A DNA stretch of 37,455 nucleotides from a virus, in the UHGV virus genome UHGV-0248180. One strand, given 5' to 3'. Each line of letters begins with the position of its first letter. Positions within the stretch are counted from its first letter, which is position 1. Below the pieces are notes generated by a model. The model was given only the letters and a program-made list of their open reading frames with translations. It was not told the origin of the DNA and did not search any database. Position numbers and translations under genes: made by a program. Shown here in pieces: positions 3,133 through 25,942 of the stretch.

Positions 3133-4101
<969 letters not shown>

Positions 4102-7117: not shown

Positions 7118-7147
7118 GTTTACTTTTCCTCTTGACTGTGGTATAAT
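7118..7147 (+). promoter_or_regulatory. T4 early promoter upstream of regB (GTTTAC-N18-TGgTATAAT)
   Basis: GTTTAC 7118-7123; TG 7139-7140; TATAAT 7142-7147. Confidence 0.65.
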
Positions 7148-7174
7148 TTTTCTATCAGTTAAGAGGAGAATAAC

Positions 7175-7636
7175 ATGACTATCAATACAGAAGTTTTTAT
7201 CCGTCGAAATAAGCTTCGTCGTCACTTTGAGTCGGAGTTTCGTCAAATTAACAATGAGATTCGTGAGGCATCAAAAGCAGCAGGAGTCTCATCGTTTCAT
7301 CTAAAATATTCTCAGCATCTTCTTGATCGTGCAATTCAACGGGAGATTGATGAGACATATGTTTTTGAATTATTCCATAAAATAAAAGACCATGTTTTAG
7401 AAGTTAATGAATTCCTGAGTATGCCTCCACGTCCTGACATTGACGAGGATTTTATTGATGGGGTTGAATATCGTCCTGGGCGTTTGGAAATTACAGATGG
7501 AAATCTTTGGCTTGGATTTACGGTTTGTAAACCTAATGAGAAGTTCAAAAACCCGTCACTTCAATGTAGGATGGCAATTATCAACAGTCGTCGTTTACCA
7601 GGAAAGGCTTCTAAAGCAGTAATTAAAACTCAATGA
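7175..7636 (+). CDS. regB: RegB sequence-specific endoribonuclease (153 aa)
   Basis: Translation matches T4 RegB from memory; own Shine-Dalgarno contains the RegB target GGAG (7164-7167). Confidence 0.92.
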   Translation: MTINTEVFIRRNKLRRHFESEFRQINNEIREASKAAGVSSFHLKYSQHLLDRAIQREIDETYVFELFHKIKDHVLEVNEFLSMPPRPDIDEDFIDGVEYRPGRLEITDGNLWLGFTVCKPNEKFKNPSLQCRMAIINSRRLPGKASKAVIKTQ

Positions 7637-8189: not shown

Positions 8190-8523
8190 AATTTTGGTTT
8201 TATGTATAGGATTAATTTCATTTTCTGCGTTAGCAGATACATCATATACTGAAATTAGAGAATATGTAAACCGTACTGCAGCGGATTATTGCGGGAAAAA
8301 TAAAGCATGTCAAGCTGAATTTGCGCAGAAATTAATATATGCATATAAAGACGGAGAAAGAGATAAATCAAGCAGATACAAAAATGATACATTGTTAAAA
8401 CGATATGCTAAAAAGTGGAATACCTTAGAATGTTCAGTTGCGAAGGAGAAAGATAAAGCCGCTTGTCATTCAATGGTTGACCGTTTGGTAGATTCTTATA
8501 ATCGAGGATTGAGTACTAGATGA
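8182..8523 (+). CDS. vs: hypothetical protein with N-terminal signal-like segment; positional candidate for vs (valyl-tRNA synthetase modifier)
   Basis: Synteny (regB - vs.1 - vs in T4) and size only; sequence identity not verified. Confidence 0.45.
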   Translation: MTKILVLCIGLISFSALADTSYTEIREYVNRTAADYCGKNKACQAEFAQKLIYAYKDGERDKSSRYKNDTLLKRYAKKWNTLECSVAKEKDKAACHSMVDRLVDSYNRGLSTR

Positions 8524-8987
8524 TTGTAAAATATATCAAGGGCGATATTGTCGCCCTTTTCGCTGAAGGTAAAAATATTGCGCATGGATGCAATTGTTTT
8601 CATACTATGGGTTCAGGCGTAGCGGGTCAATTAACCAAAGCTTTCCCTAAAATTTTGGAAGCTGATAAATTACAGACTGAATGGGGTGATGTAACTAAAC
8701 TCGGTTCTTACTCAGTCTATGAAAAATACTTTAGGACTCATAAAGCGTATTGCTTCAACCTTTATACTCAATTTCAACCAGGGCCAAATTTTGAGTATTC
8801 CGCTTTAATGAATTGTATGTTAGAATTAAATGAGTTTGGTGAAAATAAACTGATTAAACCTACAATCTATATGCCTAGGATTGGTGCAGGCATAGGTAAA
8901 GGGAACTGGGATATTATTGAGGGGATTTTAGATACATATTCCTCTAAATTAGAAATTGTGATTGTTGATTGGGAACCGTTATTATGA
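8520..8987 (+). CDS. Macro-domain protein (putative ADP-ribose binding/hydrolase)
   Basis: Motifs HGCNCFHTMGSGVAGQ and PRIGAGIGKGNW resemble macro-domain diphosphate-binding loops (NAAN..GGGV and GIGTGIYG). Confidence 0.7.
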   Translation: MIVKYIKGDIVALFAEGKNIAHGCNCFHTMGSGVAGQLTKAFPKILEADKLQTEWGDVTKLGSYSVYEKYFRTHKAYCFNLYTQFQPGPNFEYSALMNCMLELNEFGENKLIKPTIYMPRIGAGIGKGNWDIIEGILDTYSSKLEIVIVDWEPLL

Positions 8988-10519: not shown

Positions 10520-10528
10520 TGCAAAAGT

Positions 10529-10536
10529 TATAAATA
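10529..10536 (+). promoter_or_regulatory. Candidate T4 late promoter box TATAAATA
   Basis: Exact octamer 26 nt upstream of ATG 10562. Confidence 0.4.
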
Positions 10537-10561
10537 GGTTTATCTAACTAAAGGGGTATAT

Positions 10562-10774
10562 ATGCTACAATTAACTGAAAAGCAACTTCGCAATCTTACT
10601 GTGCTTCAATTAGATGAAATTCGTAGGGAAGTTGGAAATATCATTTCAGCTTTGCGTCGAGAAGTATCACTCAACCAATCTCCGGCAGACTATACTAGAT
10701 TGCGAAATTTTGAAAAATACCTTGATAAAGTTAAGGCCGTGCATCGGCATAAAGTAAATACAGGACAAAAATGA
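10562..10774 (+). CDS. hypothetical protein (70 aa)
   Basis: ORF; GGGG RBS. Confidence 0.5.
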
Positions 10775-16494: not shown

Positions 16495-16524
16495 GTTTAC
16501 AAGACTGTTCCTCTGTGGTACTAT
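16495..16524 (+). promoter_or_regulatory. T4 early promoter (GTTTAC-N18-TGgTACTAT) with conserved leader ACAACTATCAACT
   Basis: GTTTAC 16495-16500; TGg TACTAT 16516-16524. Confidence 0.65.
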
Positions 16525-16552
16525 ACAACTATCAACTACGGAGGAACAGAAA

Positions 16553-17080
16553 ATGAATGCTAAAGATATTTTCAACCTGGTAAATTACAACGATGGTAAA
16601 TTTAAATCAGAAGCACAAAGCAAGTTCTTTAATGACATCTCAATCGGAGGTGAAATCACGGTTGATGGAGGACAGATTTACAAATCCCGTTGGAATTGGA
16701 TCGTTATTATTGATGAGATTGGTATTGTAGAAATTTACAAAAATACGAATAAAAATCGTACATTGCACTGGTCTCGTGATACTAACGAACAGTACAAAAA
16801 GGATAAAGCATCTAAATTATCTCGTGTAACTCAAGAAGATATTGAGTTTATCAAGAAAGATATTTTAATGTATGATAACTTAATTGCTGAAGAGCAAGCT
16901 GTTATTGATAAATTTGACGAGATTAAAGCTTCTCGTGAAATTCCTGATTTTATGAAAGAATCAGTAAATGAACGATACACTCTCATTTCAGAGCGTATTG
17001 AAACTTACAAAAAGCAAAGAGCTGAACGCCAAAATACTCTTCGGAAGTTTGAAGAACGGTTAAAGACGGTACTCGCATAA
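16553..17080 (+). CDS. hypothetical protein (175 aa) with C-terminal coiled-coil-like region
   Basis: ORF with GGAGGA RBS; track start 16493 reads through promoter. Confidence 0.6.
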   Translation: MNAKDIFNLVNYNDGKFKSEAQSKFFNDISIGGEITVDGGQIYKSRWNWIVIIDEIGIVEIYKNTNKNRTLHWSRDTNEQYKKDKASKLSRVTQEDIEFIKKDILMYDNLIAEEQAVIDKFDEIKASREIPDFMKESVNERYTLISERIETYKKQRAERQNTLRKFEERLKTVLA

Positions 17081-22843: not shown

Positions 22844-22873
22844 GTTTACACTGATGAAGAAACAGTATATAAT
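22844..22873 (+). promoter_or_regulatory. T4 early-type promoter upstream of pin (GTTTAC-N18-TATAAT)
   Basis: GTTTAC 22844-22849; TATAAT 22868-22873. Confidence 0.5.
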
Positions 22874-22913
22874 GAACCAACGATAAATGACTTAATTGAT
22901 ATGGAGATGGGAC

Positions 22914-23399
22914 ATGATTACAGTAGATAAGTGGTTTAGAATTAATCGTGTTGATACAGGGCTATGTAATTACTGGCCGGAACTTAGTGCAGGTACTGTC
23001 TTTAAAGTTCGTGAACTTACAAAAGAATGTGAAGATGATATAGAGCCTGATACTGGAATTATTGAAATTGAACTTTCCGACGGAAAGATTATTAACATCT
23101 ATGATAAGCCAATTACGTATTGGTGCTTGTGGAATGCTGAATCCGTTGAAAATGGCGAAATTGAAGAAGTTGTAGAGAGAACTAGCCAAGATGTTCAGAA
23201 GCCTAAAGCCGCTTTTCAAGGTGAACGTATTTCATATGCATTAGCTAAAGTGGCATTGAAAAAAGATATTGATGATTATGAAGGTAACCTGATGCAAGCT
23301 GCGGCAGAATATATTGAATGGCTTGAAACACAAAATTCTTTTTCTGACCAAATGATTCGGCAATATAAGCGATTGCATCAAATGTTTTATAATACTTGA
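22914..23399 (+). CDS. pin: Pin, inhibitor of host Lon protease (161 aa)
   Basis: Synteny nrdC-pin-49 and 161-aa size as in T4; GGAG RBS before ATG 22914 (track start 22896 is TTG). Confidence 0.8.
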   Translation: MITVDKWFRINRVDTGLCNYWPELSAGTVFKVRELTKECEDDIEPDTGIIEIELSDGKIINIYDKPITYWCLWNAESVENGEIEEVVERTSQDVQKPKAAFQGERISYALAKVALKKDIDDYEGNLMQAAAEYIEWLETQNSFSDQMIRQYKRLHQMFYNT

Positions 23400-23435
23400 A
23401 AAAACTCAAAATTCTTTTTCTGACAAGGCATTTTA

Positions 23436-23612
23436 ATGAAAACCGAATTGGTTTATACTGAAAAGTTAAATGGCGGTAAGGTTTGGAAACTTTTTATTAA
23501 AGGACATTCTACGGACCCTCATATGACCACTTGCGTAGGAACCTATTCTCGTCCTACTAAAAAGATGATTCGACAGTATAAACGATTGCATCGAATGTTT
23601 TACAATACTTAA
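23436..23612 (+). CDS. small ORF (58 aa) whose last 15 codons duplicate the C-terminus of Pin
   Basis: ORF below track cutoff; 48-nt segment 23565-23612 is ~87% identical to 23352-23399. Confidence 0.35.
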   Translation: MKTELVYTEKLNGGKVWKLFIKGHSTDPHMTTCVGTYSRPTKKMIRQYKRLHRMFYNT

Positions 23613-23623
23613 AAATAATAAAT

Positions 23624-23648
23624 ACCCTTATCTATTTAAGGTAAGGGT
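23624..23648 (+). promoter_or_regulatory. Hairpin (ACCCTTA / TAAGGGT) overlapping the gene 49 ribosome binding site
   Basis: 7-bp inverted repeat; 3' arm contains AAGGG just upstream of ATG 23655. Confidence 0.5.
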
Positions 23649-23654
23649 TTTATT

Positions 23655-24128
23655 ATGTTATTGACTGGCAAATTATATAAAGAAGAAAAACAGAAATTTT
23701 ATGATGCACAAAACGGTAAATGTTTAATTTGCCAACGAGAACTAAATCCTGATGTTCAAGCTAATCATCTTGATCATGACCATGAATTAAATGGACCAAA
23801 AGCAGGAAAGGTACGTGGATTGCTTTGTAATCTCTGCAATGCCGCAGAAGGTCAAATGAAGCATAAATTTAATCGTTCTGGATTAAAGGGACAAGGTGTT
23901 GATTATCTTGAATGGTTAGAAAATTTACTTACTTATTTAAAATCCGATTACACCCAAAATAATATTCACCCTAACTTTGTTGGAGATAAATCAAAGGAAT
24001 TTTCTCGTTTAGGAAAAGAGGAAATGATGGCCGAGATGCTTCAAAGAGGATTTGAATATAATGAATCTGACACCAAAACACAGTTAATAGCTTCATTTAA
24101 GAAGCAGCTTAGAAAGAGTTTAAAATGA
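23655..24128 (+). CDS. 49: Endonuclease VII, Holliday junction resolvase (157 aa)
   Basis: Translation matches T4 gp49 from memory; zinc motif CLICQ..CNLC. Confidence 0.95.
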   Translation: MLLTGKLYKEEKQKFYDAQNGKCLICQRELNPDVQANHLDHDHELNGPKAGKVRGLLCNLCNAAEGQMKHKFNRSGLKGQGVDYLEWLENLLTYLKSDYTQNNIHPNFVGDKSKEFSRLGKEEMMAEMLQRGFEYNESDTKTQLIASFKKQLRKSLK

Positions 24129-25942
24129 CAATTGAAAAAGAAATTGAAGGATTGATTCATAAAACTAATAAAGACCTTTTAAACGAGAATGCTAATAAAG
24201 ATTCTCGTGTTTTTCCAACTCAACGGGACCTTATGGCTGGTATTGTGTCTAAACACATTGCCAAAAATATGGTCCCGTCTTTTATTATGAAAGCGCATGA
24301 AAGCGGAATTATTCATTTCCATGATATTGATTATTCCCCTGCTCTTCCATTTACTAATTGTTGTTTAGTAGATTTAAAAGGAATGCTTGAAAACGGATTT
24401 AAGCTTGGTAATGCACAGATTGAAACTCCTAAATCAATTGGCGTTGCTACTGCAATTATGGCGCAAATTACTGCGCAAGTTGCTTCCCATCAATACGGCG
24501 GAACGACTTTTGCGAATGTAGATAAAGTACTTTCTCCTTATGTTAAACGCACCTATGCAAAACATATTGAGGATGCAGAAAAATGGCAAATCGCTGATGC
24601 GTTGAATTATGCTCAATCTAAAACAGAAAAAGACGTATACGATGCATTTCAAGCTTATGAATATGAAGTAAACACTCTCTTTAGTTCAAACGGACAAACG
24701 CCTTTTGTAACAATTACATTTGGTACGGGAACTGACTGGACTGAACGAATGATTCAGAAAGCAATTCTGAAAAATCGTATTAAAGGTCTTGGTCGTGATG
24801 GGATAACTCCTATTTTCCCTAAGCTTGTTATGTTCGTTGAAGAAGGCGTTAATCTTTATAAAGACGATCCGAATTACGACATTAAGCAACTTGCTCTAGA
24901 GTGTGCAAGCAAAAGGATGTATCCTGATATTATTTCAGCTAAGAACAATAAAGCTATCACTGGTTCATCTGTTCCTGTTTCTCCAATGGGTTGCCGTAGT
25001 TTCTTGAGCGTATGGAAAGATTCGACTGGTAATGAAATTCTTGATGGACGTAATAATCTTGGTGTTGTAACACTGAATCTTCCTCGCATCGCGTTAGATT
25101 CTTATATTGGAACACAGTTCAATGAACAGAAATTTGCTGAATTATTCAATGAACGAATGGATTTATGTTTTGAAGCTTTGATGTGTAGAATTAGTTCCTT
25201 AAAAGGAGTTAAAGCTACTGTTGCTCCTATTCTTTACCAAGAAGGTGCATTCGGGGTTCGTCTTAAACCTGATGACGACATAATTGAGTTATTTAAAAAC
25301 GGTAGAAGTTCAGTGTCTTTAGGATACATTGGTATTCACGAATTGAATATTCTTGTCGGTCGTGATATTGGACGAGAAATTTTAACTAAAATGAATGCTC
25401 ATCTTAAACAGTGGACTGAAAGAACTGGATTTGCTTTTAGCTTGTATTCTACTCCCGCTGAAAACCTTTGTTATCGCTTCTGTAAACTTGATACTGAAAA
25501 ATATGGAAGTGTAAAAGATGTTACTGATAAAGGCTGGTACACTAATAGTTTCCATGTTTCAGTAGAAGAAAATATTACTCCGTTTGAAAAGATTTCTCGC
25601 GAAGCCCCATATCATTTCATTGCGACAGGTGGTCACATTTCTTATGTTGAACTTCCTGATATGAAAAATAACTTAAAAGGTCTTGAGGCCGTGTGGGATT
25701 ATGCTGCACAGCATTTAGATTATTTTGGTGTTAATATGCCAGTAGATAAGTGTTTTACATGCGGAAGTACCCATGAAATGACTCCTACTGAAAACGGATT
25801 TGTTTGTTCTATTTGTGGAGAAACTGATCCTAAAAAGATGAACACAATAAGAAGAACATGTGGTTATTTGGGAAATCCGAACGAGCGCGGATTTAATCTT
25901 GGCAAAAATAAAGAAATCATGCATAGGGTTAAACACCAATGA
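24125..25942 (+). CDS. nrdD: Anaerobic ribonucleoside-triphosphate reductase NrdD (class III), 605 aa, uninterrupted
   Basis: C-terminal glycyl-radical motif RRTCGYLG and zinc ribbon CFTCGS..CSICG. Confidence 0.95.
   Translation: MTIEKEIEGLIHKTNKDLLNENANKDSRVFPTQRDLMAGIVSKHIAKNMVPSFIMKAHESGIIHFHDIDYSPALPFTNCCLVDLKGMLENGFKLGNAQIETPKSIGVATAIMAQITAQVASHQYGGTTFANVDKVLSPYVKRTYAKHIEDAEKWQIADALNYAQSKTEKDVYDAFQAYEYEVNTLFSSNGQTPFVTITFGTGTDWTERMIQKAILKNRIKGLGRDGITPIFPKLVMFVEEGVNLYKDDPNYDIKQLALECASKRMYPDIISAKNNKAITGSSVPVSPMGCRSFLSVWKDSTGNEILDGRNNLGVVTLNLPRIALDSYIGTQFNEQKFAELFNERMDLCFEALMCRISSLKGVKATVAPILYQEGAFGVRLKPDDDIIELFKNGRSSVSLGYIGIHELNILVGRDIGREILTKMNAHLKQWTERTGFAFSLYSTPAENLCYRFCKLDTEKYGSVKDVTDKGWYTNSFHVSVEENITPFEKISREAPYHFIATGGHISYVELPDMKNNLKGLEAVWDYAAQHLDYFGVNMPVDKCFTCGSTHEMTPTENGFVCSICGETDPKKMNTIRRTCGYLGNPNERGFNLGKNKEIMHRVKHQ

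Follow-up and report, generated by a model that had tools for sequence, protein, structure and literature searches.

A leader hairpin with an embedded late promoter as a very probable temporal translational switch of gene 49 in a T4-type phage

The window, a 37,455-nt stretch of the virus genome UHGV-0248180, is assigned by its sequence to a T4-type myovirus (Tequatrovirus). Over 23300-24300 the sequence matches Escherichia phages ES12 and ES26 at 100% identity, and RB32, RB33 and many others at 98-99%. The gene order runs from nrdC through pin and a 58-aa ORF to gene 49, with the whole series on the plus strand. The genes and promoter-like site around gene 49 are as follows.

22845-22873, plus strand: sigma-70-like promoter (TTTACA-17-TATAAT, 11/12 match) before pin, from a pattern scan only
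22896-23399, plus strand: pin, Lon protease inhibitor, upstream of gene 49 and co-oriented with it; its transcripts would enter the hairpin
23436-23612, plus strand: 58-aa ORF (phrog_3272) of unknown function, between pin and gene 49 and co-oriented
23655-24128, plus strand: gene 49, an ORF for endonuclease VII of 157 aa; 157/157 residues are identical to T4 gp49
24125-25942, plus strand: nrdD, adjoining gene 49 downstream

The stop codon of the 58-aa ORF occupies 23610-23612, and only two nucleotides (23613-23614) separate it from the base of a hairpin at 23615. RNAs reading through this ORF would consequently carry the full hairpin. The promoter-like site at 22845-22873 is a candidate origin of such long, masked transcripts, a function that we infer from its sequence. 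T4 does not contain the phrog_3272 ORF, and the upstream neighbor of gene 49 is pin in T4 but the 58-aa ORF here. The 58-aa ORF carries at its 3' end a duplicate of the pin 3' end (23352-23416 versus 23565-23629, 82% identity), with a second duplicated pin segment at 23326-23348 versus 23402-23424 (96% identity), and the C-terminus of the 58-aa product is the pin-derived peptide MIRQYKRLHRMFYNT. Owing to this duplication around the 58-aa ORF, the gene 49 leader has retained its pin-derived upstream context. On the downstream side, nrdD is a single uninterrupted 605-aa ORF, whereas T4 nrdD is split by a group I intron carrying I-TevII. A MotA-type middle-promoter-like site (TGCTTCA-N12-TATAAT) lies at 24037-24062, within the 3' end of gene 49 and 62 nt upstream of the nrdD ATG; the window as a whole is enriched in TGCTT-type sites, with 13 found versus 4.6 +/- 2.2 expected.

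A first-pass annotation had reported a 7-bp inverted repeat immediately before gene 49. The repeat is present (ACCCTTA at 23624-23630, TAAGGGT at 23642-23648), and the ATG at 23655 starts the 157-aa ORF. The size of the stem had been understated: the seven pairs do form, but within an 18-bp hairpin of -18.1 kcal/mol, and a 7-bp stem with an 11-nt loop would reach only -6.1 kcal/mol. The hairpin is built from the following elements.

23615-23656, plus strand: whole leader RNA hairpin, 18 bp and one bulged U, -18.1 kcal/mol (RNAfold)
23615-23622, plus strand: 5' arm of the lower A-U stem, overlapping the late-promoter box; T4-like subgroup only
23624-23633, plus strand: 5' arm of the upper stem, ACCCUUAUCU (RNAfold), covarying with the 3' arm in relatives; present only in RNAs started upstream
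23634-23638, plus strand: loop, AUUUA (RNAfold)
23639-23648, plus strand: 3' arm of the upper stem, AGGUAAGGGU, which holds the Shine-Dalgarno (SD) sequence (RNAfold)
23642-23647, plus strand: SD sequence of gene 49, UAAGGG, 7 nt before the AUG (8 nt for the AAGG core), wholly in the 3' arm
23649-23656, plus strand: 3' arm of the lower stem, consisting of the spacer UUUUAUU and the A and U of the AUG (RNAfold)

In the RNAfold structure of 23613-23657, the 10-bp upper stem (23624-23633 with 23639-23648, ACCCUUAUCU/AGGUAAGGGU) includes one U.G pair. It is followed by the bulged U23623 and an all-A-U lower stem of 8 bp (23615-23622 with 23649-23656), in which the first two nucleotides of the start codon, A and U, are paired. 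The folding energy of -18.1 kcal/mol compares with -6.0 +/- 2.2 for 200 dinucleotide shuffles (z = -5.5), none of which folds as well; a second RNAfold run on the hairpin gave z = -4.1. The 10-bp upper stem alone accounts for -12.4 kcal/mol. The hairpin stays the dominant structure in contexts of 160-400 nt, where the partition function gives the SD at 23643-23647 an unpaired probability of 0.001. The folding energy is therefore far from negligible, and the SD does not lie outside the stem; UAAGGG is fully contained in the 3' arm just before ATG 23655, as the annotation had claimed for the ribosome-binding site. An upstream AAGG (23638-23641, 13-nt spacing) is three-quarters paired. The copy at 23642-23647 is the conserved one, and relatives L007-L011 keep no other. 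With automatic SD choice, accessibility on "long" RNAs in the T4 subgroup came out at an inflated 0.41, because the TAAGG chosen there was the upstream, partly looped one.

For an internal background, positions -45 to +6 were folded for each of the 71 plus-strand ORF starts of the window. Gene 49 showed the lowest local folding energy (-18.1 kcal/mol; median -5.0, s.d. 3.7) and the lowest mean unpaired probability over -13 to +3 (0.07), followed in the latter by gene e (0.13). Other structured leaders in the window precede a 175-aa phrog_2274 protein (16508-16558, -15.7 kcal/mol), a 155-aa phosphatase-like protein (8475-8525, -12.1) and a RegB-like endoribonuclease (7130-7180, -11.0). An Rfam 15 scan at E <= 1 found no family at its gathering threshold; the best matches, ohsC_RNA (26.5 bits) and rnk_leader (21.6 bits), are at chance level against thresholds of 50 for both.

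The 5' arm of the hairpin also contains a late-promoter box, which is absent from the account of the first-pass annotation and whose position there is what makes the proposed switch work.

23617-23624, plus strand: gp55-type late-promoter box AATAAATA, 7/8 match to TATAAATA, taken as -13 to -6; overlaps the 5' arm
23630, plus strand: predicted late +1 (A), inferred from the box at -13 to -6; an invariant alignment column inside the 5' arm

In T4, the late consensus TATAAATA spans -13 to -6, and position -13 is T or A in T4-like phages (PMC1524935). The box here, AATAAATA, thus differs from the canonical sequence. WATAAATA occurs six times in the 37-kb window versus 15.1 +/- 3.6 expected, with four occurrences on the plus strand, one of which is the gene 49 box. 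Since the motif is avoided in the window, this box is unlikely to be background. The predicted T4 counterpart of the late start lies at about 46879 on the complement of NC_000866; no promoter is annotated at the gene 49 locus in the GenBank and RefSeq entries of T4. A T4 dRNA-seq preprint (10.1101/2024.04.04.588121) reports 150 T4 TSSs.

An RNA started at 23630 would lose the entire 5' arm of the lower stem and six of the ten nucleotides of the upper-stem 5' arm. In the partition function, the predicted unpaired probability of the SD (23643-23647) is 0.70 for this RNA and 0.67-0.70 for starts from 23629 to 23632. The minimum free energy of the late leader is -4.9 kcal/mol for a start at 23630 and -4.9 to -6.1 kcal/mol across the same starts; weak predicted structure persists near the AUG, with an unpaired probability of 0.22. 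The first-pass annotation had proposed a T4-type mechanism, in which masking of the ribosome-binding site distinguishes long from short transcripts. This model is favored by folding, predicted accessibility and covariation, which agree with one another, and by the complete identity of gp49 to its T4 counterpart.

To define the conservation of the leader, viral contigs were scanned for gp49, yielding 44 loci with 50-100% protein identity and 41 distinct upstream sequences; 36 distinct leaders from these 44 loci plus T4 were aligned with MAFFT. A hairpin lies directly before the ATG in the minimum-free-energy fold of nearly all 44 loci. The 41 sequences have a common layout, in which (N)NTAAATA is followed by a 5' arm, a loop, an SD-bearing 3' arm, 0-7 nt and the ATG. 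TAAATA is invariant in 36/36 leaders, immediately 5' of the stem, and the predicted +1 A is likewise invariant. The stem sequences themselves vary by lineage (ACCCUUAUC/GGUAAGGGU, GGUUCAUCU/AGGUGAACC, CUCUUAUC/GGUAAGAG, ACCUCUAUA/UAUAGGGGU and GAGUCAU/AUGACUC), and so does the SD in the 3' arm, which reads UAAGG, GAGGUG, GGGGUG or GGAA among the relatives.

The pairing is maintained through these changes. RNAalifold on the MAFFT alignment returned only three pairs, with loop-length gaps breaking the consensus; pair counts were therefore made on the single-sequence-fold structure and then on an alignment fitted to a covariance model. In the MAFFT alignment of 36 leaders, 91.3% of the upper-stem cells are paired, compared with 35-56% in controls that slide the 3' partner by 1-3 columns. 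Compensatory changes occur at six of the ten upper-stem pairs, several of them with all four Watson-Crick types (CG, GC, AU and UA), and amount to 71 double-change cells. The covariation score of 0.479 exceeds that of shuffles (0.165), and 0/500 reach it. The alignment fitted to the covariance model gives 92.2% pairing, with 7/9 pairs compensatory, and the model also found the leader of Acinetobacter phage Abraxas, which lies outside the training set (E = 7.5e-4). In 30 sequences a U.G pair is present, which would be C.A on the opposite strand, indicating that the pairing acts on the sense-strand RNA.

The lower A-U stem occurs only in the T4-like subgroup and may be partly a by-product of the promoter sequence; most relatives have just the upper stem, of 9-12 bp. 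The box-stem-SD-AUG layout is also found in Pseudotevenvirus (EC-W1), Lazarusvirus (Abraxas), Krischvirus (MIZ6) and Aeromonas phage AS4. At the Aeh1-like loci the box reads CTAAATA, which is the divergent late consensus reported for Aeromonas phage Aeh1. The box thus tracks the late promoter of each lineage. Vibrio phage nt-1 (L051, NC_021529.2 241906-243095) has neither the late box nor the hairpin, and its gene 49 neighbors are divergently oriented. With divergent neighbors there would be no read-through from upstream, so the absence of the masking hairpin serves as a natural negative control for the read-through-masking logic. The gene 49 leader of the autographivirus PhiM1 has no box and no hairpin. 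Within the window, the gene 49 leader model also matches 10520-10567 weakly (25.8 bits, E = 0.28). There, TATAAATA at 10529 precedes a 70-aa ORF (10562-10774, phrog_1826), which itself comes after a 193-aa ORF taken here as thymidine kinase. Folding predicts no stable hairpin at this site (z = +0.69), which looks like a plain late promoter with an SD.

These comparisons bear on what the hairpin does. That it serves mainly as a Rho-independent terminator for the pin and 58-aa-ORF transcripts, with SD masking incidental, appears improbable. A permissive pattern scan did classify 23624-23648 together with TTTATTATGT as terminator-like, a stem followed by a U-rich stretch, but the stem is weak and rich in A-U, with only 4/10 pairs G-C or C-G, and the U run of four (three in T4) is interrupted (UUUU-A-UU). 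The RefSeq record of phage vB_EcoM_G9062 labels the orthologous hairpin "putative transcriptional terminator, -10.70" (L001 1826-1848; NC_054920.1 44922-44944), and the MotA-type promoter-like site at 24037-24062 could make read-through unneeded for nrdD. In other lineages, however, the ATG lies 0-4 nt after the covarying stem with no U tract (GGTGAACCTATG, GGTGAACTTATG, ATGACTCTAATG), and outside the CCCTTATC subgroup the U tract is not conserved with the stem. The alignment was used for this comparison, since counting T residues over the 8 nt that follow the stem is uninformative about a U tract: the ATGTTATT coding sequence also gives 5/8. Because the U tract is missing where the stem covaries, the conserved set consists of the stem, SD, AUG and late box, not of a stem with a U tract. 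A terminator would, moreover, leave the invariant TAAATA at its fixed position in the 5' arm unexplained. Given the comparative evidence, the label in G9062 is probably a mis-annotation; a leaky or minor terminator role besides masking is possible in the T4 subgroup.

Still less probable is an RNA processing or stability element, such as an RNase III-type site or a 3' protective hairpin, through which cleavage and not masking would stop translation. In most relatives the helix is limited to the upper stem of 9-12 bp, a length insufficient for RNase III, and the covarying element always includes the SD, although the 18-bp helix of the window nears the length of RNase III substrates. A 1988 abstract on T4 gene 49 by Barth and colleagues is also said to describe the SD on long transcripts as sequestered in a hairpin and/or removed by processing. 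Chance pairing of an A/T-rich late promoter beside a purine-rich SD, without selection on pairing, deserves hardly any credence. It could account for the lower stem, which is all A-U, arises from AATAAA (promoter) opposite UUUAUU (spacer) and is confined to the T4-like subgroup. It is at odds with the failure of all 200 shuffles to fold as well, the rank of the gene 49 start (1/71 in the window), the compensatory double changes at 6-7 stem positions and the pairing of 91-92% against at most 56% in the slid controls.

We thus consider that the gene 49 leader is very probably a temporal translational switch of a T4-type phage that combines an RNA hairpin with a late promoter embedded in it. This reading draws on the structure, its statistical excess, the box-stem-SD-AUG geometry and its conservation with compensatory changes across genera. 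In the proposed mechanism, RNAs initiated ahead of pin and the 58-aa ORF, at early or middle promoters, would contain both arms. Such long RNAs would fold over 23615-23656, burying UAAGGG and the AU of the AUG, and initiation by the 30S subunit would be blocked. Once DNA replication begins, the gp55-RNA polymerase would use the AATAAATA box (23617-23624) and start at about A23630. The resulting late RNA, without the lower 5' arm and six of the ten upper 5'-arm nucleotides, would leave the SD free, and full-length endonuclease VII would be made late, when branched DNA needs resolving for packaging. That this phage makes long and late transcripts, where precisely the late RNA starts and how translation responds are expectations drawn from orthology to T4 and from the literature.

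In T4, work by Barth, Powell, Trupin and Mosig in 1988 reportedly found that long early gene 49 transcripts are not translated from the first AUG, their SD being held in a hairpin, and that late transcripts begin within this hairpin. The same study is said to describe an internal GUG of gene 49 as the start of a nested 12-kDa protein. In the T4 GenBank record this product, gp49' (105 aa), is annotated as a demonstrated internal start. At codon 53 of gene 49 (23811-23813), the window has GTA as against GTG in T4. Among eight T4-like leaders, codon 53 is GTG in two, GTA in five and ATA in one, and only 5/47 related sequences have GTG at this position. Judged from these sequences, nested gp49' is probably not a conserved feature. 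The internal GUG of T4 is accordingly missing from the window, which leaves the hairpin switch itself unaffected. With moderate confidence, we regard the gene 49 box-hairpin as an old regulatory RNA that has been kept by compensatory evolution in at least six Straboviridae lineages (Tequatrovirus and relatives, Pseudotevenvirus, Lazarusvirus, Krischvirus, and the Aeh1-like and AS4-like Aeromonas phages) and lost where there is no read-through, as in nt-1. Under the same view, early RNAs would be without any gene 49 product where the internal GUG is absent, and gp49' would be an oddity of the T4 strain.

The hairpin would explain how the gene of a junction-cutting nuclease can lie in an early-transcribed region and yet be translated only late, a classic T4 solution common to lysozyme, soc and the intron endonucleases. 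Annotations should avoid the terminator label that at least one RefSeq record gives this hairpin. The comparisons leave the understanding of the mechanism unchanged. What they add is the family-wide picture of covariation, the natural control provided by nt-1, the probable mis-annotation of the hairpin as a terminator in that record and the finding that the internal GUG is not conserved.

The leader shares with a known class of switches a stable hairpin over the SD and start codon, a late box with its predicted +1 in the 5' arm and a late RNA predicted to be unmasked. PMC3014915 groups T4 gene 49 with e, soc and I-TevI in this class of translational control, and for gene e it describes late promoters just upstream that produce RNAs without the 5' strand. 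PMC2988022 describes the arrangement of late promoter and masking hairpin for I-TevI, I-TevII, I-TevIII, segB and mobE, and cites Barth et al. 1988 (Genetics 120:329) for other T4 genes, printing "39", apparently for 49. In the window, gene e (T4 lysozyme, 164 aa) together with its leader lies at 3571-4101, with the leader at about 3571-3610 and the start at 3607, and represents the textbook case of the mechanism. As in the gene 49 leader, read-through RNAs of gene e have the SD (GGAGG) and the surroundings of the AUG hidden in a hairpin (McPheeters et al. 1986). Gene e is a different gene whose leader is unrelated in sequence and has two tandem canonical TATAAATA boxes (3573 and 3586), in and before the 5' arm. 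The leaders of I-TevI, I-TevII, I-TevIII, segB and Aeh1 mobE likewise have a late promoter placed so that late RNAs are without the 5' strand of the SD-masking hairpin; these are homing endonuclease genes in introns or between genes, and they have no sequence in common with the gene 49 leader. The closest counterpart is the T4 gene 49 leader itself, an orthologous locus with the same AATAAATA box, upper stem, loop and SD, preceding an identical gp49. The proposed logic is also the same, in that the ribosome-binding site would be masked on long RNAs and freed by a late promoter within the hairpin. Two changes set the leader of the window apart from that of T4, a T inserted in the GGGTTT(T)ATT run and an A/G substitution that lies upstream of the hairpin. 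The insertion places an extra U in the SD-AUG spacer of the window (GGGUUUUAUU versus GGGUUUAUU in T4) and makes the spacing 1 nt longer, a variant that also occurs in the related loci L003, L004 and L006. The lower stem consequently has 8 bp and a 1-nt bulge here but 7 bp and a 2-nt bulge in T4, with total energies of -18.1 and -16.3 kcal/mol, respectively. The switch described here is thus the already known T4 gene 49 element in a near-identical relative, and it is real and conserved, not new.
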